Positions 13,549-53,064 of a stretch of 64,000 nt of DNA are shown in pieces. This DNA comes from Desulfomonilia bacterium. Its GTDB lineage: Bacteria; Desulfobacterota; Desulfomonilia; UBA1062. The DNA lies in assembly GCA_963664325.2 (NCBI GenBank), contig CAXXDQ010000004.1:640001-704000 (forward strand), given 5' to 3'. Below the pieces are notes generated by a model. It searched no databases. It saw only the letters and a program-made list of their open reading frames with translations, and was not told the origin of the DNA. The position numbers and the translations under genes are program-made. Numbering within the stretch: position 1 is the stretch's first letter; every line of letters begins with the position of its first letter.

Positions 13549-13578
13549 GGCATATAACTATACCACAAATAAATATTT

Positions 13579-13604
13579 ATTCACTACCGACTTGCTAGAT
13601 TTAT
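13579..13604. promoter_or_regulatory. Possible Rrf2-family (IscR/CymR-like) operator upstream of cysE
   Basis: Imperfect palindrome ATTCACTACC-GACTT-GCTAGATTTAT about 30-55 nt before the cysE start. Confidence 0.3.
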
Positions 13605-13767
13605 TATAAATATTCTTACGGGCGGGAAGCGGGAAGGAATAAAGCAGCACTCTGCACGAGTAAGCAGCTGTCAGGCTGTCGAACTGATGAGCTGTCGGCA
13701 GGTGAGCTGCAAAATTGTAAAACGGAATCAAAATCCGTCCGGCTAATCAGCCTGTCAGGTTAAAGGC

Positions 13768-14226
13768 TCATCCCTCCAGCGCCTTAAGCGCAAGAGGTAC
13801 GGTATCCTCGGGCGCGATCTTGTATGATGCGCCAAGAACGATGCCTTTTTCATCAATTAATATTACCGAGCGGATGATCCCGGACACCTCTTTGCCGTAC
13901 ATCATTTTTTTGCCGAATGCCCCGTATGCATTTGCAACAGCCTTGTCCGGGTCTGAAAGCAGGGTGAAGTTGAGGCTGTATTTTTCATCAAAATTCTTAA
14001 GGGTTTCGGGTTTGTCCGGGCTTATGCCGATTGCAGCAATACCCTTTTGCTTCAGCTCGTCAAGAGCGTCCCTGACCGAGACGGCCTGCCTTGTTCACCC
14101 CGATGTGAGCGCCTTGCCATAAAAGTACACAAGGACTTTCTTGCCTGAAAAATCAGTTAGTTTGACAGTTCTTCCGTTCTGATCCAAAAGCGAAAACACC
14201 TGGGCAGAATCACCTTTCTTCAACAA
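13768..14226 (-). CDS. bcp: BCP/PrxQ peroxiredoxin, probable selenoprotein (Sec at codon 44)
   Basis: GGAGGTG RBS, TTG start; MLKKGDSAQVFSLLDQNG...VYFYGKALTSG-TGA-TRQAV...GISPD...FTLLSDPD...GIIRS...EG*. The in-frame TGA at 14095-14097 sits at the peroxidatic Cys position; 152 aa. Confidence 0.88.
14061..14093 (-). promoter_or_regulatory. Bacterial SECIS-like hairpin of bcp
   Basis: After UGA: CAAG..CGTCTC-GGTCA-GGGACG..CTTG; G-initiated apical loop begins 17 nt after the UGA. Confidence 0.7.
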
Positions 14227-14375
14227 GTATCACCTCCTGTTGTTTCTATATCTGATTTCGTGATTTTTTCAGAATAACATTAGCAAATTCCTTGATTCGC
14301 TCATCTTCAGACATATAATCTTTATTAAAGAACTTTGTTTCTTGTTACCTGATATTTGAGAAGGGGGGTTGTTTG

Positions 14376-15833
14376 ATGAAATGCTGGAATTTGATAATGG
14401 CATTTGTTGTTCTGCTTTTAACCGCCTGCGTTCCCGCAAACCTGCCTGAAAAGGTCTATTTCAAGGGCAATACGAGGTCCATGAACAGCCGCTATTATGC
14501 CGCAATCAGCAGCGGGAATATCTGGGTAAAACCCAATGTCGAGCGGACAGGCCTAAGCGGTAAATGGGTTATGCTTGAGAACCTGCCGTCGGGCCTTGCT
14601 GGCAAGGTGACGGAGTTTGCCATGGATGACGAGCATATCATCGCATTGAACAGGGAGCGTCAGATTTACACCATGTGGAACGCCCTTGATGAAGTCTCAA
14701 AATTCAGGTGGCAGAAGCAATGGGGCCTGCCTTTCTGGTATGGCCCGGGCATGAAGCTGAGACCGGATGTCATGAAATGGGATTTCTCTGTGGTATCAAT
14801 ACCTGAAGACGGCTACTGGACTGACCCGGCAGGCAACTTAAGGAAAGTGGGCTCCGCCAAGTGCTCGCATATAATCATGCTCAATTCCGGCGGACAGACC
14901 ATCACGTTCAACGACCCGTGGCTGCCGCGCGATTACAGTTACGGGATCGGTACGCCGTTCAGGGGCAGGTTCATCTCGGTCAACCTGAGCTCGAGCGGTT
15001 CAACGCATTTCATAATCAACAGATACGGCGATATGTTCACGAGGATGTTCGACTTCGACATATCAGGGCTCGATCAGTTCATGCCGTATTCTTATGAAGA
15101 CCAGCGGGGCATTTCGGGAAATCCCGATTCCATATTCCAGGTTATCCAGCTTCCGGCCGAGGACTGGCTCAAACAGCCGAAAATCTTGACAACAGGCAGG
15201 GCCTCAATTACGGACCGCATCAGCATCCAGAAGATAGGCAAAAACTGCATTCACAGGACGCTTCGTGTCGAAGGCACGGATGAGGGCGGCAATACAGGCT
15301 TTTATGAAAAGGATATAAGGGGAATCGGAAGCGCCTCCTGGGTGTTTCATAAAACCGGTGAGAAGCTTGCCGGGAAGACCCTTGATAACAAACCCTATGA
15401 CAGCTCTGCCGAGGCTCTCGGCCAAAGCGACGACCTGGCCTATTCAATGAAGGCTGACGGCTTCACGGCCAGCATCCCGGATTTCAACTGCTACAATCCG
15501 CCCGCGACGCTCGAAATAAGACTTTCAGGAGGCAGCTCTATAAGCCTTCCCCTGCACTACCGGGAGACCATAAGGGTCAGCGAACGCGCAGCAGGAATCG
15601 ACAATGATCCCAGGCTTTTCCTGGGCGCGATAGAAGCGCCGCAGACGTTCATCGATTCGCTGAAGGAAGCGCCGGAAGAGGTGAAGGCCTTTGCAGGGAA
15701 ATACCTCGAAACCGATGACGGCCGCTTTACCGAAATACGCATTACAGTAGCGCTCGATTTGCTCGAAATCAAAAGTACGAATATCGGTTGGCTTTTCGAG
15801 CGCCTGGAGCAGGATAAAGATCAGGCCCGGTAG
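14376..15833 (+). CDS. Hypothetical lipoprotein (beta-rich)
   Basis: Lipobox LLLTAC after a hydrophobic stretch; about 485 aa; no recognisable family. Confidence 0.75.
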   Translation: MKCWNLIMAFVVLLLTACVPANLPEKVYFKGNTRSMNSRYYAAISSGNIWVKPNVERTGLSGKWVMLENLPSGLAGKVTEFAMDDEHIIALNRERQIYTMWNALDEVSKFRWQKQWGLPFWYGPGMKLRPDVMKWDFSVVSIPEDGYWTDPAGNLRKVGSAKCSHIIMLNSGGQTITFNDPWLPRDYSYGIGTPFRGRFISVNLSSSGSTHFIINRYGDMFTRMFDFDISGLDQFMPYSYEDQRGISGNPDSIFQVIQLPAEDWLKQPKILTTGRASITDRISIQKIGKNCIHRTLRVEGTDEGGNTGFYEKDIRGIGSASWVFHKTGEKLAGKTLDNKPYDSSAEALGQSDDLAYSMKADGFTASIPDFNCYNPPATLEIRLSGGSSISLPLHYRETIRVSERAAGIDNDPRLFLGAIEAPQTFIDSLKEAPEEVKAFAGKYLETDDGRFTEIRITVALDLLEIKSTNIGWLFERLEQDKDQAR

Positions 15834-46761: not shown

Positions 46762-47058
46762 ATGAAAAAGGCAATAGTTGGTTTTTTGGTACTTGTAGCA
46801 TTCACATTCATGGTAACCGCGGCATTTGCAGCAGATGCGGCAGCACCAGCGGCACCGGCAGACAAGGCGGCACCGGCAGTAACAGCAGACAAGGCGGCAC
46901 CGGCGGCTGACAAGGCGGCACCGGCAGACAAGAAGGCGGAAAAGAAGGCAAAGAAAGCAAAGAAGTCAAAGAAGGCAAAGAAGACGGAAAAGAAGGCAGA
47001 CGCAGCGGCACCGGCAGCGCCGGCTGAAGCAGCGGCACCGGCAGCACCGGCAAAGTAA
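46762..47058 (+). CDS. Small exported Ala/Pro/Lys-rich low-complexity protein
   Basis: AGGAGG RBS, signal peptide ending AFA, ADKAAP repeats (GCAGACAAGGCGGCACCG), central Lys-rich block. Confidence 0.85.
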   Translation: MKKAIVGFLVLVAFTFMVTAAFAADAAAPAAPADKAAPAVTADKAAPAADKAAPADKKAEKKAKKAKKSKKAKKTEKKADAAAPAAPAEAAAPAAPAK

Positions 47059-47556: not shown

Positions 47557-48558
47557 ATGAAGAAATTGGTCGTTGTTTTATTTATCATGGCGCTAGCTGC
47601 AGCAGGTTGTTCAAAGAACAAGGAAGAAACAGCTAAACCCGGAGAAAAGCAGATAAAATTTTCGCCTAACGTTATCGCAAAGGTCGGATCAACAGAAATC
47701 AAGGAATCTGATATTGATGCGATTTTGTCACAGATTCCCGAGCCGTACCGTGCGCGTTATGCGACGCCTGAGGCGAAGAGGGAGATCATCGAGAAGATGG
47801 CTGAAGTCAAAATGATGGCAATGGAAGCGAAGAAGAAAGGCATAGACAAGAAGCCTGCCACGAAACTGAAGCTGGAGTATATCGGAGACCAGATACTGGC
47901 GCGGGACCTTGAGGAATCGGCGGTGGAGAATATAAAGATCAGCGATGCCGACATAACCAAGTATTATAACGACAACAAGGATAAATTTGCACAGGGGCCG
48001 AGGGTTAAGGTAAGGCATATCCTTGTCAATACGGAACCTGAGGCAAAGGCCATCCTTGCCCAGTTAAAAGGTGGCGCCGACTTCTCCAAACTTGCAAAGG
48101 AAAAGTCAAAATGTCCTTCGGCACCTAGAGGCGGAGACCTTGGATGGGTGACACAAGGCAGAATGGACCCGGCGTTCGAAAAGGCCGCATTTGCTCTCAA
48201 GAAGGGACAGATGAGCGGGATCGTGAAATCCTCTTTCGGTTATCATATTATAATCTGCGACGATATCGAGGCCAAGAAAGAAAAGGACCTTAAAGATATC
48301 AAGCCTCAGATTGAGAAACAGCTGCAGAGGGAAAAGAGAGAGGAAGTTACAAACAAGCTCAAAGAGCAGGTTAAGAAAGATTTCCCGATTGCAATAAACG
48401 AGGAATATTTCAAGAAGGCGAAGGAAGAAGCCGCCAAAAAGGCGCCGGCTGCTCCTGGTGAACCCGGTGAAGGAATGCCTGGCGCGCCGGCTCCGGCACC
48501 AAAGGCCGGACAGCAGGCTCCGGGCGCAGCAGCTCCGCAGGCAAAACCGGCAAAATAA
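47557..48558 (+). CDS. PpiC/parvulin-type peptidyl-prolyl isomerase lipoprotein (PrsA-like)
   Basis: Lipobox AAGC; VRHILV, FSKLAKEKS, GGDLGW, FEKAAF, SSFGYHII. Confidence 0.93.
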   Translation: MKKLVVVLFIMALAAAGCSKNKEETAKPGEKQIKFSPNVIAKVGSTEIKESDIDAILSQIPEPYRARYATPEAKREIIEKMAEVKMMAMEAKKKGIDKKPATKLKLEYIGDQILARDLEESAVENIKISDADITKYYNDNKDKFAQGPRVKVRHILVNTEPEAKAILAQLKGGADFSKLAKEKSKCPSAPRGGDLGWVTQGRMDPAFEKAAFALKKGQMSGIVKSSFGYHIIICDDIEAKKEKDLKDIKPQIEKQLQREKREEVTNKLKEQVKKDFPIAINEEYFKKAKEEAAKKAPAAPGEPGEGMPGAPAPAPKAGQQAPGAAAPQAKPAK

Positions 48559-48598: not shown

Positions 48599-48658
48599 GA
48601 AAGTGAGCAGTTCTAAATGGATGATGAGAATTATATTATGTATTTCGGAGACTTTTGA

Positions 48659-49360
48659 ATGCTGAATCCGAAAAAAATCATTACAGGTTTAACTGTTATT
48701 TTGTTTCTGATCATCTCTGCCAATGCGAGTGCGGCTCCTAAAGCTTTGGTTAACGAACTTGAGTATAACGTTGGAGAAATCCCGCAAGGGAAACCGATTA
48801 TTCATGACTTTATTATCAAAAATACTGGCGACAAGCCTCTGGAAATAAAAGTCGGACATTGTTGAGGGGTTAAAATCAGTGCCCCGGCGGGGCCGATCAA
48901 ACCAGGAAAATCAGGAAAAATTAGAGTGGAGATAAATTCATCCTATCAAAAGGATTCATATAAGAAAGATATAGAGGTCACCACAAATGATCCTGATAAA
49001 AGCACTTTTAAACTAACAGTTCTTGCCATGATCAGGGAGAGCCTTTCGATTATTCCGCAATATGTAAATTTCGGTTCCGTGCCTGCAAATGCAAAGCTTG
49101 ACATGCCCGTTAAAATTACAAACAAAGGCAAGGATAACGTAACTGTAAGTCTGGTTAATGTTAATCCTGCAGCCAACTTCAGCATTTCACCAAAATTTAA
49201 AAACATGCTCATCAAGCCTGGCAAAACAAAAGATTTATTATTAAGACTGGATTCAGGTATGAAATCCGGTGTGATTGAAGGGTCAGTTTTAATCAGAACC
49301 AGCCTTCCTTATATTCCCCAAAAGATCATACCAGTAAGCGCAGCGGTAATTCCCCGCTGA
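48659..49360 (+). CDS. Exported DUF1573-like Ig-fold protein, probable selenoprotein (Cys68-Sec69)
   Basis: ORFs 48659-48865 and 48926-49360 are in one frame, joined by a single TGA (48863-48865): HDFIIKNTGDKPLEIKVGHC-U-GVKISAPAGPIKPGKSGKIRV...TNDP; signal peptide; 233 aa. Confidence 0.8.
48875..48897 (+). promoter_or_regulatory. SECIS-like hairpin of the DUF1573 gene
   Basis: ATC..GCCCC-GGC-GGGGC..GAT; G-initiated loop 20 nt after the UGA; a GC-rich island in an AT-rich gene. Confidence 0.65.
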
Positions 49361-49455
49361 TCATTATGTAAAAAAAGACCTCCAGTCAGAAAATAGAGTA
49401 TTTGGCAAAACATATTATCACTGCTAAGGATCTTGTAAGGAGGAGTTTTTAATTT

Positions 49456-49986
49456 ATGAAAAGGAAAATTCACTTCTTCATGCTTTCACTGACACTTGTT
49501 GTCGTTACTGCCGCATGTTCGGGCAAACCACCAAAGGAAGAATTTGATAAGTTTGCCCTTGATGAATTTCATAAGAATATCTGTGAAAAAAATTACTGCC
49601 AGTCGGACAATGACAGGCTTTGCTCTTACGTTCATTATAACAATGCCAATCCTTGCCAGGTATTTGCAACCTTGTTCTATTTTCTCGGAACTGAGATTGT
49701 TAAAAATGAAAACAGGGAAGAAGCGGGGAAATATCCTTTTGCGGGAAATTCATATTATTTACTTGTAACAGTGCACACCACGGAATGCAGTGACTTCAAC
49801 AGGGAATCCTGTAAAAAGGCCTTTGAAGATAAAGTGAGCAAACTGAAGATCGAAAATCTTAAAAATACCGATTCCATAAATATTGAAGGGCCTGGTATGC
49901 CGCCAATGTCAGATAACAAGATTTACAGTGAACAGTTCAAATGGGATAAAGTGACCAAAAGATGGCAAGTAAAGATAAATGAATAA
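49456..49986 (+). CDS. Hypothetical Cys-rich lipoprotein
   Basis: AGGAGG RBS; lipobox TAAC; six further Cys; AT-rich. Confidence 0.75.
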   Translation: MKRKIHFFMLSLTLVVVTAACSGKPPKEEFDKFALDEFHKNICEKNYCQSDNDRLCSYVHYNNANPCQVFATLFYFLGTEIVKNENREEAGKYPFAGNSYYLLVTVHTTECSDFNRESCKKAFEDKVSKLKIENLKNTDSINIEGPGMPPMSDNKIYSEQFKWDKVTKRWQVKINE

Positions 49987-50270: not shown

Positions 50271-51590
50271 TCATTTGCCCTCAGAAAGGTTTTCATTAAC
50301 GGCTGAAGGAGGGTTTATCGTCACATCCACCCAGGGTCCTTTTATGAGAGATAATGCCGCCTTCCGGACCTCGGGCAGGGTTAGCGCCGCAATATCCGCC
50401 AGAAATTTCTTGTCGAAATCAAGCGGGATACCCTGAAAGACATAACCCATTGAATGCGAGATTATCCCGCCGGGCGTGTTGTATTCGGTTGCAGCCCTGT
50501 TTATTATGGTTGCCTTGGCCCAGCTGACCTCTTCATCAGTAATGCTTTCTTCTGCGAGAGCGAATGTGCGCGCCAGGGCATCCCTCACGTTCTTGAGCTC
50601 CTTCGGTTCTGTAATGACGATTATGCCGGATGCCCCCCAGAGCGGAGAGGCCTGGTAAAAACTGTCCGCCGAATATGCCAGCCCCGCCTTGGTCCGTACC
50701 TCCTTGACGAGAAGCGAGTTGAACCCGCCGGAGCCTATTATAAGGTCTGCGGCCACGGTTGCGGCATAGGAAGGGTCCTTCATGTCGGGCGCCTTATGGA
50801 TCATAAGGACAATACAGTGCTTCTGGTTCGCCAGGCCGGTGAATGAGCCATAATCAGGATTAGGGGGGTAGGTAAGTTTCGATGTCGAGAACTTGCCAGG
50901 GAATTCGTTTTTCAGTTGACGGGTGTTTTTTTCATCCAGGCTGCCGGTTATTCCTATCAGGGGTTTCGAATTGAATATTTCCTTGTGCATTTCAAGCATG
51001 TCCTCTTTTGTGATGGCATCGACGCTATTTGCCGTCGGCCTTTCGGCCCTGGGATCATCCCTGTAGTAATGCCTGTAGTATATGGTATATGCCTGTTCGA
51101 TAGCCTCGTCGTCCTTGCGTATAATGCCGTCTTTCATTATGCCCCGTTCCAGTTCGACACGCTTTGTGTCGAGCCTCGGTGATTTGATGATGTCGACAAG
51201 GAGCCTGATCGCCTTGTCCGATACATCCGGCAGGAATGACATCCCGACCATTGTATAGTCTCTCTGGGGAGAGACGGAGATGTCTATGGCCAGCGAATCA
51301 AGGAGCTTATCCATTTCTTCCGGGCCGATATCTTTGGTCCCTCCTGTGACAAGTGATGAACAAAGGAGATCCGCAGTTCCTTCCGCCCCTTTCTTATCCA
51401 GGATCGTCCCGCCGGGGAAAAGCAGAATTACATGGGTCACGCCCGTACCCTCAAGCCTGTATATGCCGTCAACGGGGCTCGCCACCGGAGGAACGGCAGT
51501 AACCGGTATTTCTGCAAGAAGCCTTGGGTCGGCTGTTGTGGCGCACCCCGCAAAAATCAACAAAACAAAAATGATAATGGCCTTTTTCAT
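50271..51590 (-). CDS. M16 peptidase, non-catalytic subunit (lipoprotein)
   Basis: Lipobox FAGC; lacks HxxEH; VRTKAGLAYS motif. Confidence 0.88.
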   Translation of the reverse strand: MKKAIIIFVLLIFAGCATTADPRLLAEIPVTAVPPVASPVDGIYRLEGTGVTHVILLFPGGTILDKKGAEGTADLLCSSLVTGGTKDIGPEEMDKLLDSLAIDISVSPQRDYTMVGMSFLPDVSDKAIRLLVDIIKSPRLDTKRVELERGIMKDGIIRKDDEAIEQAYTIYYRHYYRDDPRAERPTANSVDAITKEDMLEMHKEIFNSKPLIGITGSLDEKNTRQLKNEFPGKFSTSKLTYPPNPDYGSFTGLANQKHCIVLMIHKAPDMKDPSYAATVAADLIIGSGGFNSLLVKEVRTKAGLAYSADSFYQASPLWGASGIIVITEPKELKNVRDALARTFALAEESITDEEVSWAKATIINRAATEYNTPGGIISHSMGYVFQGIPLDFDKKFLADIAALTLPEVRKAALSLIKGPWVDVTINPPSAVNENLSEGK

Positions 51591-51591
51591 C

Positions 51592-53064
51592 TCACTCCTC
51601 CAGGTATGCAGTGGTGGCATTCTCCCTTACAAGGTATTTAGAAGAACATTCTTTTATCTGACCGGATTTCAGACCCTGAAGGACTTCAAGATTTTTGAAC
51701 ACGTATTTCCAGTCCCCGGCAAGCATCTCATAAGTGGACAGGACGGATGCGGCCCCGGCATCGGTTTCAAGGGATGTCAGGATGGATTTCGTGAGGACCC
51801 TGACGGTCTGATCGAGTTCCTCTTTTGTAATACCCTCTTTTTTAAGCAGTTCGATCTCTTTCCATATTATATCTTCGAGCTCTTTATTCGTATGCGGGCT
51901 TACAGGGTTTGCCGAGATTATGAAAAGATTGTCAAGCCTGCTTCCGGGCAGGCCGTTATATGTGCTCACATCCGAGGCAAGGCCTTTTTTAACCAGAGCC
52001 CTGATCAGCCTTGAGGTCTCGCCGCCTGCAAGCACCTGCTCGATAACATCGAAACATGTGTCGTCGACAGACGGAAGTTTTGGTTTTTTCACCCCGATGA
52101 TGATGCTCGGCTGTTCTTTGGAGGATATCCTGACTTTTATATTCGCCCTGCGGGACGGCTCGTCAAGGGCTATTGATTCGGTCTTGCCCCGGTTGGGAAT
52201 TTTTCCGAAATACCGGGCCAGTATTTTTTTTGTCTCTGCAGGATCAAATCCGCCGGCAATGGCGACCACCATATTCCTGGGAATATAGTGTTCAAAGTAG
52301 TAATCCTGCAGGTCTTTTCTTGTGAGGCCTTCGATATCCTTCCTGAACCCTATGACAGGGTACCTGTAAGGAGATGCCTCGAAGGAATGAAGAAGGAATT
52401 TTTCGAATAAAGTCCCTTCATCCGAAAGGTCGATACTCTGCGAACGCTCTTTCAGAACCACGTCCCTTTCCGAATAGAATTCCCTGAAAACGGGCTTTCT
52501 CATCCGTTCGCTTTCAATGGCCGCCCAGAATTCGATCCTGCCTTTGGGCAGGCTCACATGATACGAGGTCAGGTCCGCGGAAGTGGAGGCGTTAAGGCCG
52601 ACGCCTCCGGCCAGGGAATACAGCCTGTCAAGCTCACCCGGCACCTCGAAGGCGGATGCCTTCTTTGTCAGTCCGGCCATTTTGTCGTTCAGGGCTTTGC
52701 TGTCCTTAGGTGACGCGGTCTTCATCTTTTCAGCAATGTCATCCATTTCATCAAGCAGTTTTTTTTCCTTCCGGTAATCGGTGGTGCCTATGGTGCCGGT
52801 CCCTTTGAACATCATGTGTTCCAGCATGTGGGAAAGCCCGGTCTTTCCCGGGTGTTCGTCGATGCTGCCTACTTTGACCCTGACCTCGAAAGAGACCGAG
52901 CTGGAATCCCTGGGCAGCAGAAGAAACGTCATGCCGTTGTCAAGCACGTAGCGCTCGACATCAGGCAGTTCCGTTGACAGCGAATATCCGGGAACGAAGA
53001 GCAAAATAAGAAATATTACAGCCGTCAAAAACTTTGTCTGCTTGTAAATGGTACCTGCGTTCAT
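51592..53064 (-). CDS. M16 (pitrilysin) zinc peptidase, catalytic subunit
   Basis: GLSHMLEHMMFKGT, NASTS, ER..V..ER. Confidence 0.93.
   Translation of the reverse strand: MNAGTIYKQTKFLTAVIFLILLFVPGYSLSTELPDVERYVLDNGMTFLLLPRDSSSVSFEVRVKVGSIDEHPGKTGLSHMLEHMMFKGTGTIGTTDYRKEKKLLDEMDDIAEKMKTASPKDSKALNDKMAGLTKKASAFEVPGELDRLYSLAGGVGLNASTSADLTSYHVSLPKGRIEFWAAIESERMRKPVFREFYSERDVVLKERSQSIDLSDEGTLFEKFLLHSFEASPYRYPVIGFRKDIEGLTRKDLQDYYFEHYIPRNMVVAIAGGFDPAETKKILARYFGKIPNRGKTESIALDEPSRRANIKVRISSKEQPSIIIGVKKPKLPSVDDTCFDVIEQVLAGGETSRLIRALVKKGLASDVSTYNGLPGSRLDNLFIISANPVSPHTNKELEDIIWKEIELLKKEGITKEELDQTVRVLTKSILTSLETDAGAASVLSTYEMLAGDWKYVFKNLEVLQGLKSGQIKECSSKYLVRENATTAYLEE

Follow-up and report, generated by a model that had tools for sequence, protein, structure and literature searches.

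A DUF1573-domain gene with a conserved in-frame UGA and a predicted vicinal Cys-Sec site in a Desulfomonilia bacterium

The stretch of DNA analysed here (the window) comprises 64,000 nucleotides from a Desulfomonilia bacterium (GenBank assembly GCA_963664325.2, contig CAXXDQ010000004.1, positions 640,001 to 704,000 of the forward strand). The source genome, labelled G000 below, measures 4.3 Mb in 9 contigs and is 95.6% complete. The gene under study lies on the plus strand of the window, where two open reading frames (ORFs) called with translation table 11, 48659-48865 (68 aa) and 48926-49360 (144 aa), share a common frame and are separated by a TGA at 48863-48865 followed by 20 open codons. 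Reading through this TGA gives a protein of 233 residues with the motif H-C-U-G-V at residues 67-71 (U, selenocysteine, Sec), the translation around the site being ...IKVGHCUGVKISAPAGPIKPGKSGKIRV..., and the frame is closed by a second TGA at 49358-49360. The Pfam model of DUF1573 (PF07610) matches residues 32-121 with 78 bits against a gathering threshold of 26.1 and spans the TGA unbroken. The 20 codons behind the TGA are conserved among homologs, and full-length homologs of the same architecture were found. A preliminary description, made from the sequence of the window, had taken the two ORFs as one gene split by the TGA only and the intervening codons as a continuation of the domain, and both proposals hold. 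Three Logan re-assemblies of a single sample are identical to the window over 48600-49400; this sample is probably the source of the assembly, so they are not independent of it.

An AlphaFold2 model built on an alignment of 45 sequences reached a pLDDT (predicted local distance difference test) of 95.2. It contains an N-terminal helix at residues 4-21, corresponding to the predicted signal peptide, and then two beta-sandwiches, the strands of the second domain (129-231) being modelled at pLDDT 96-98. In the model C68-U69 occupy a loop of the first domain, between strands 63-65 and 71-74. The N110-D111 loop of the protein is invariant. The exported Ig-fold protein of the preliminary description is thus borne out by Pfam, the model and Foldseek as a predicted signal peptide followed by two Ig-like domains. 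The 50 matches listed by Foldseek against the PDB comprised Ig domains of the ASH, PapD-like, HYDIN and CEP192 types together with 2qsv, an uncharacterised protein of Porphyromonas gingivalis; such generic Ig-domain matches provide no functional lead. No DsbD chain was among the 50 matches listed, in what was a general search and not a targeted comparison with nDsbD.

The in-frame TGA is conserved well beyond the window. In the following, f1 denotes the GTDB family of the window and f2 its sister family, and a member of the clade of the window protein is a match at E <= 1e-22 in the class search. A whole-genome search with stops read through recovered a homolog at E <= 1e-10 in 34 of 41 relatives, and in the class sample a clade member was present in 49 of the 51 other f1 genomes and in none of the 70 f2 genomes. 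Exactly one TGA occurs in 59 of the 69 clade matches of the class search. In all 41 distinct TGA-bearing sequences it stands within x-U-G-[V/A], typically K-P-C-U-G-[V/A]-K, and it is retained in homologs with as little as 30% identity to the window protein. A MAFFT alignment places U69 in the same column as the first Cys of the S-C-G-C motif of DUF1573 proteins and as the Sec of the U-G-C selenoproteins; the C69 and G70 columns are nearly invariant, the spacing to the downstream conserved I-x-P-G is the same in the window protein and in the U-G-C and S-C-G-C forms, and the +2 position in the clade of the window protein is Val or Ala. The S-C-G-C relatives, which lack the TGA, were found in f2 and in four other genomes of the phylum: in 394 genomes sampled across the phylum, the matches at E <= 1e-20 from outside f1 numbered four, all of them S-S-C-G-C-T or T-S-C-G-C-T without TGA. 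Hence, the conservation of the TGA among homologs, its alignment with Cys in other members and the correspondence of the Sec with the first Cys of S-C-G-C, all raised in the preliminary description, are found in the alignment. The UGA of the window gene (48863-48865) is a conserved sense codon; together with the hairpin, the Sec machinery and the natural Cys control described below, this conservation leads us to conclude that it encodes Sec.

A hairpin lies downstream of the codon. GCCCC (48881-48885) can pair with GGGGC (48889-48893) around a GGC loop that begins 20 nt past the TGA, in agreement with the GC-rich hairpin and G-initiated loop reported earlier. The bacterial selenocysteine insertion sequence (SECIS) is a stem-loop just 3' of the UGA, figure legends of PMC1976440 and PMC2398784 describe a G in its apical loop, and a SECIS example in the BSepDB paper has a comparable GC stem and a GGC loop. 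When 25 TGA-bearing genes are aligned, the helix falls in columns 26-31 and 37-42 (16-21 and 27-32 nt counted from the T of the TGA), and 88.7% of its cells are paired; sliding the 3' partner by 1-3 columns lowers this fraction to 31-59%. Changes on both sides occur in four of the six pairs, and none of 500 shuffles matched the observed covariation or paired fraction. In homolog L038 a compensatory C-G to U-A change turns, at its 3' side, a Gly into Glu; since the pairing is kept at the expense of that Gly, the RNA helix is under selection beyond the A-P-G-G peptide that it encodes. All four core pairs stand in a fixed register in 40 of the 41 TGA forms, as against two of the nine TGA-less clade members, and the same register was found in 0 of 16 other Cys forms and in 1 of 26 U-G-C selenoprotein genes. 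The sole TGA form out of register, L100, has lost one codon, so that its hairpin, otherwise the same, is displaced by 3 nt. Loops among the TGA-bearing homologs are GGN or CGGGN, that is, they carry GG. The hairpin is therefore not only present at the window gene but also conserved and covarying across its homologs. An Rfam scan of 48600-49400 returned only three sub-threshold chance matches to snoRNA or sRNA models.

The source genome holds the machinery for Sec decoding. Its tRNA-Sec scores 67.5 bits (threshold 47), and selA (507 bits), selB (275 bits) and selD (380 bits) are all above their curated cut-offs. The selD gene (G000:C3:477478-478392, plus strand) has itself one in-frame TGA, so that SelD would be a selenoprotein in this organism. 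The selB gene (G000:C4:883195-885037, minus strand) is matched in two abutting parts, model positions 1-45 and 45-579, in separate open frames, which may reflect a frameshift, an assembly error or a split start. The window contains a second TGA gene, encoding a Prx/Bcp protein (AhpC/TSA, 109 bits, at 13837-14214, minus strand), with one TGA at the peroxidatic position in the motif T-S-G-U-T-R-Q and a read-through ORF that spans 13558-14505 (minus strand); the preliminary description had invoked this bcp gene as independent support for Sec decoding, and the match sustains it.

A natural Cys control is offered by an ortholog (L037) in the genome G023, which is 98% complete. It reads P-C-C-G-V-T-V-S-A-P-G-G-P, with Cys in place of Sec and the downstream peptide kept, and its hairpin is broken, two of the four core pairs being left. 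In G023 selA was not found even at E <= 0.001, the best tRNA-Sec candidate reached 44.5 bits against the threshold of 47, and the best selB match, at 187.8 bits, was EF-Tu-like, none exceeding the cut-off. This agrees with the link between Sec form and Sec machinery that the preliminary description had anticipated: the one ortholog with Cys at the Sec codon sits in a genome in which selA, tRNA-Sec and selB were not detected.

The residue preceding the Sec is Cys in 38 of the 41 Sec forms and in all nine TGA-less members of the clade. In these nine a second Cys is found at the Sec position (C-C), at -3 (C-G-C-G-G, C-S-C-G-G) or at -4 (C-[D/E]-S-C-N-G). Hence a site with two chalcogens (C-U in 38/41 Sec forms; C-C, C-x-C or C-x-x-C, including the -1 Cys, in 9/9 non-Sec members) is the conserved feature of the clade, and the case for a redox or chelating function of dithiol-like type depends chiefly on it. 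Two of the TGA-less members are Cys paralogs of the source genome itself, G000:C4:204501-205145 (L001) and G000:C6:126992-127657 (L004), with orthologs L077-L081 and L089. In proteins of this type the Sec position is taken by Gly or Asn, and a new Cys stands two to three residues upstream (D-C-G-C-G-G-V-K; S-C-D-S-C-N-G-F-K). Because they nest within the C-U clade (support 99, in a group of 15 rows), the tree suggests that Sec was lost and an upstream Cys newly recruited, a direction that depends on where the root is placed. The remaining Sec forms read H-T-U-G-V-S in both genomes of genus g9 (L030, L033) and P-S-U-G-V-R in L090 (G485:C54), with an intact hairpin in all three; in these the site would have a single chalcogen.

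The preliminary description regarded the protein as a candidate little-known selenoprotein, and in this respect it has to be amended. A selenoprotein family of this domain was published in 2007, when Zhang and Gladyshev listed OS_HP2 as a new family from the metagenome of an Olavius symbiont (PMC1976440, Table 2); the GOS paper gives OS_HP2 as pfam07610 with the motif UxC (PMC2398784), and entries in two reviews (PMC9312934, PMC13188914) give a 'DUF1573 domain-containing protein' with the motif UGC only. What is missing from the tables of these sources is the Cys-Sec arrangement: the entries of the four papers and the one file of the BSepDB supplement do not mention a C-U form of DUF1573, and in that file DUF1573, OS_HP2 and PF07610 are absent altogether. 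The published U-G-C (UxC) motif is in turn absent from the window protein, which has C-U-G-V instead. Its best NCBIfam match is NF041425, 'OS_HP2 family (seleno)protein', with 75.8 bits, below the cut-off of 100; in a genome scan with this model the window copy scored 65.4 bits and none of the five copies of the genome reached the cut-off. Across the phylum NF041425 matched above its cut-off in 31 of 401 genomes, and the loci of its 30 best matches were 25 x-U-G-C and 5 Cys forms.

A quick tree was computed with IQ-TREE from 69 rows, with SH-aLRT values as support and a root placed at the midpoint solely for display. Left out of it were L047, L048, L050, L055, L063 and L068, whose aligned part is shorter than 150 residues, L002, which duplicates the window, and the fragment L087. 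The canonical U-G-C and C-G-C proteins grouped together (support 98), apart from the clade of the window. The f1 clade (36 rows, support 97) is sister to the S-C-G-C proteins of f2, and its rows are 26 C-U, 2 T-U, 1 C-C, 3 C-G-C-G-G and 4 C-x-S-C-N-G. The window gene is a member of the DUF1573 superfamily outside the curated OS_HP2 model, and what seems new in an already known family is C-U in place of U-G-C, the Sec column staying fixed while the partner Cys has moved from +2 to -1.

The window protein shares with OS_HP2 (NF041425) the PF07610 domain, the order of signal peptide, DUF1573 Ig-like domain and further beta-domain, the Sec column and the phylum. It differs in having C-U-G-V/A, with Cys at -1 and Val/Ala at +2, whereas OS_HP2 has G-U-G-C with Cys at +2; moreover, the SECIS register is different, the single U-G-C gene noted above being the only one to pair in the register of the C-U forms, and the two groups form separate clades in the tree. 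The Cys-form DUF1573 proteins (S-C-G-C-T; among them those of f2 and PDB 2qsv) have the same fold and domain order, and their first Cys stands in the U69 column, but they have no TGA and no hairpin (0/16), and their pair is C-x-C and not C-U.

In a centre of the thioredoxin reductase type the Sec is the penultimate residue at the C-terminus of a pyridine-nucleotide disulfide oxidoreductase. The likeness to the G-C-U-G motif of the mammalian enzyme, pointed out in the preliminary description, stands as far as the adjacent Cys and Sec followed by Gly are concerned, which could close a vicinal selenenylsulfide in both. It does not extend further, since the motif of the mammalian enzyme belongs to a flexible C-terminal tail of a cytosolic flavoenzyme, while that of the window protein, at residues 68-70 of 233, would sit inside an exported Ig-like domain, on one of its internal loops, and no flavoprotein domain is present. 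The resemblance is one of chemistry and does not reflect homology. Adjacent Cys and Sec also occur in bacterial 'CU' selenoproteins, the MerB-like SaoL (NF040728) and the 2Fe-2S protein Csac_0668 among those given in PMC13188914; these have unrelated folds, and neither family was among the NCBIfam matches of the window protein at E <= 1.

Taking the codon, the hairpin, the machinery and the domain architecture together, we propose, with a probability of roughly 0.85, that the gene product is an exported selenoprotein belonging to the DUF1573 (OS_HP2-related) superfamily, with a C68-U69 selenenylsulfide redox site in the periplasm. On this proposal, SelB with Sec-tRNA(Sec) would bind the hairpin while the ribosome is on the UGA, so that Sec69 is inserted. 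The predicted signal peptide would direct the unfolded chain through the Sec translocon, and once in the periplasm the mature protein, of about 208 residues, would adopt its fold of two Ig-like beta-sandwiches in tandem. There, Cys68 and Sec69 could form a reversible vicinal selenenylsulfide and exchange electrons with envelope proteins through the thiols or disulfides of these. The task would equal that of the C-G-C or U-G-C pair of other DUF1573 proteins, with the resolving Cys displaced from +2 to -1. The periplasmic redox function is inferred from the conserved pair and the predicted export.

The features of the locus are collected in Table 1. The neighbourhood of the window gene is envelope-flavoured. 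A tblastn search for the window neighbours (peptidyl-prolyl isomerase, lipoprotein, M16 peptidases) beside the homologs matched only the window's own loci, so that these neighbours are not conserved there.

Table 1. Features of the window gene and its surroundings, in positions of the window
Feature	Position	Strand	Basis or remark
98-residue exported Ala/Pro/Lys-rich low-complexity ORF	46762-47058	+	
PpiC-type peptidyl-prolyl isomerase (PPIase), SurA-like N-terminus	47557-48558	+	
Shine-Dalgarno-like GGAG	48647-48650	+	8 nt before the ATG; read from sequence
Complete predicted selenoprotein gene, 233 codons and terminal TGA (49358-49360)	48659-49360	+	
Predicted signal peptide for the Sec pathway, roughly residues 1-25 (KK, hydrophobic core, A-N-A-S-A)	48659-48733	+	Sequence by eye; model helix 4-21
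First Ig-like domain, DUF1573 (PF07610), residues 32-121, bears C68-U69	48752-49021	+	Pfam, 78 bits; model
Cys68 codon TGT, partner at -1	48860-48862	+	
In-frame TGA, read as selenocysteine U69	48863-48865	+	Conservation; alignment with Cys/Sec
Bacterial SECIS-like hairpin: stem 48881-48885 / 48889-48893, loop GGC 48886-48888, possible bulged extension 48876-48879 / 48894-48897	48876-48897	+	
Second Ig-like (PapD-like/ASH) domain, residues 129-231	49043-49351	+	PF14874, 28.5 bits; PF22544; model
Cys-rich 176-residue ORF, lipoprotein-like N-terminus, no family match	49456-49986	+	
Two M16 peptidase-like ORFs	50271-53064	-	
AsmA/YhdP-like protein, 1099 residues	53097-56396	+	

The conserved neighbour of the clade is murJ, the gene of the lipid II flippase. 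Among 26 clade loci examined with about 1.5 kb of flank each (L003, L005, L017-L040), 22 have murJ (PF03023, 392 bits in L018) as the next gene downstream, in the same orientation and separated by -4 to 174 nt. The linked loci are L003, L018-L022 and L025-L040 (for example murJ at L018:2219-3679), while the window copy, L005, L023 and L024 are without it. The C-U gene and murJ probably form one operon. Upstream same-strand ORFs at four homolog loci had no Pfam match; at L018 a divergent gene for a protein with tetratricopeptide repeats (TPR) and a helix-turn-helix (HTH) lies upstream.

The source genome has five copies of the gene, namely three Sec forms (the window copy, C3:314402-315094 and C3:150051-150698) and the two Cys paralogs described above. 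The core ortholog, G000:C3:314402-315094, ends 34 nt upstream of murJ. Given these further copies, one of them beside murJ, the window gene is a dispersed duplicate of the murJ-linked core gene. Neighbouring copies are also seen elsewhere: L024 and L082 are TGA-bearing C-U paralogs in tandem on a single contig (G005:C96:14359-15918), and in G395:C18 and in G080:C37 a U-G-C form adjoins a TGA-less copy.

In protein databases the clade appears mostly in pieces. A search of a collection of 5.8 billion proteins gave 20 matches, of which 18 are truncated to C-terminal pieces of 143-166 residues, the window's own fragment and one NCBI record among them; from this predominance of fragments the clade is systematically mis-called in annotation. 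The other two matches are a distant S-C-G-C protein and P0002, a full-length form of 240 aa from a JGI metagenome, 75% identical to the window protein, with W at the TGA (H-C-W-G-V-K). Since the terminal TGA of P0002 is also printed as W, its contig must have been called with TGA as Trp, a code-4-style artefact.

Several observations weigh against the proposed selenoprotein with a periplasmic redox site. Sec insertion at codon 69 is a prediction from sequence comparison. The window hairpin folded by itself is no stabler than shuffled sequences (z = 0.42; an equal or better fold in 141 of 200 shuffles), its support being comparative, and it has four of the six pairs, lacking the two outer pairs common to most homologs. 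Searches for selA (TIGR00474) found no match in 11 of the 52 f1 genomes. Four of these that carry a TGA copy (G013, G021, G483 and G016; 96-99% complete) have tRNA-Sec at 72-76 bits and selB at 329-355 bits, and SepSecS (TIGR03531), a conceivable substitute for selA, had no match in them; the gap may stem from assembly gaps or a divergent SelA. On the side of function, Thr or Ser at -1 in 3 of the 41 Sec forms means that the Cys partner is not obligatory, no known oxidoreductase was among the 50 Foldseek matches listed, and a sequence search of the PDB gave no match at E <= 1. Finally, since the window copy has lost the murJ context, its role could have diverged or been reduced.

The alternatives differ in which part of the proposal they dispute. 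That the TGA is not a Sec codon at all, but either a plain stop, leaving a peptide of 68 residues and a protein of 144 residues with a start of its own, or, under an altered code, a Trp or Gly codon, is scarcely credible. It agrees with the output of the gene callers, which gave 18 fragments in 20 matches and one record with W, but the domain runs on through the 20 conserved codons that separate the ORFs, the W record is a calling artefact, the window gene itself ends in TGA, the Sec-specific machinery and the hairpin are present, and the G023 ortholog, in a genome in which no Sec machinery was found, has Cys and neither Trp nor Gly. It is very improbable, if somewhat less so, that the window copy is a decaying pseudogene duplicate of the murJ-linked gene yielding no functional protein. 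Such decay would fit an extra paralog that stands outside the murJ context, has only 61-62% identity to the core copies of its genus and keeps 4/6 hairpin pairs. However, the 233-codon frame is intact, with GGAG and ATG, the predicted signal peptide and both domains; the model is confident and the four core hairpin pairs are present. The TGA is shared, moreover, by the 75%-identical metagenomic relative P0002, which argues that the lineage of the window paralog is itself conserved.

A more serious contender, though still an unlikely one, accepts the same selenoprotein and regards the Cys-Sec dyad as a ligand of soft metals or metalloids (Cu, Hg, Zn, As or Se species) in a periplasmic chaperone or sensor. 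The preservation of paired chalcogens across the clade would suit a ligand as well, and metal-related families with close Cys and Sec are among those published: the MerB-like SaoL with 'CU' and CopZ-like proteins with 'CU' and 'GxUC' (PMC13188914). Against it, the conserved neighbour is murJ and no metal-handling gene, no further conserved ligand residue was identified near the site (judged without model coordinates), and three of the 41 members have a single chalcogen. A redox site thus remains the preferred reading of the dyad. An extension of it goes further than we would readily follow and is put forward as doubtful: the C-U clade would be a distinct envelope redox module, the first exported bacterial vicinal Cys-Sec switch of the thioredoxin reductase kind on an Ig fold, co-transcribed with murJ, near-universal in f1, with Sec replaceable by C-C or by upstream Cys (C-x-C, C-x-x-C) and an envelope substrate tied to the export of peptidoglycan precursors.

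No new principle is involved here, since the DUF1573 selenoprotein family and Cys-Sec dyads were both known already. The C-U clade of f1 is nevertheless a well-supported addition to the bacterial selenoproteins, known from 41 distinct sequences and backed by covariation in its SECIS and by a Sec-to-Cys replacement that serves as a natural control, and it is a sub-family missed by current annotation, present in databases mostly as fragments and scored below the cut-off of the NCBIfam model. The clade shows a redox pair rearranged around a fixed Sec, from U-x-C to C-U, and new cysteines compensating for the loss of Sec, both of which are useful for understanding why Sec is kept. Moreover, the tight linkage to murJ provides an experimental handle on the function of DUF1573 domains.

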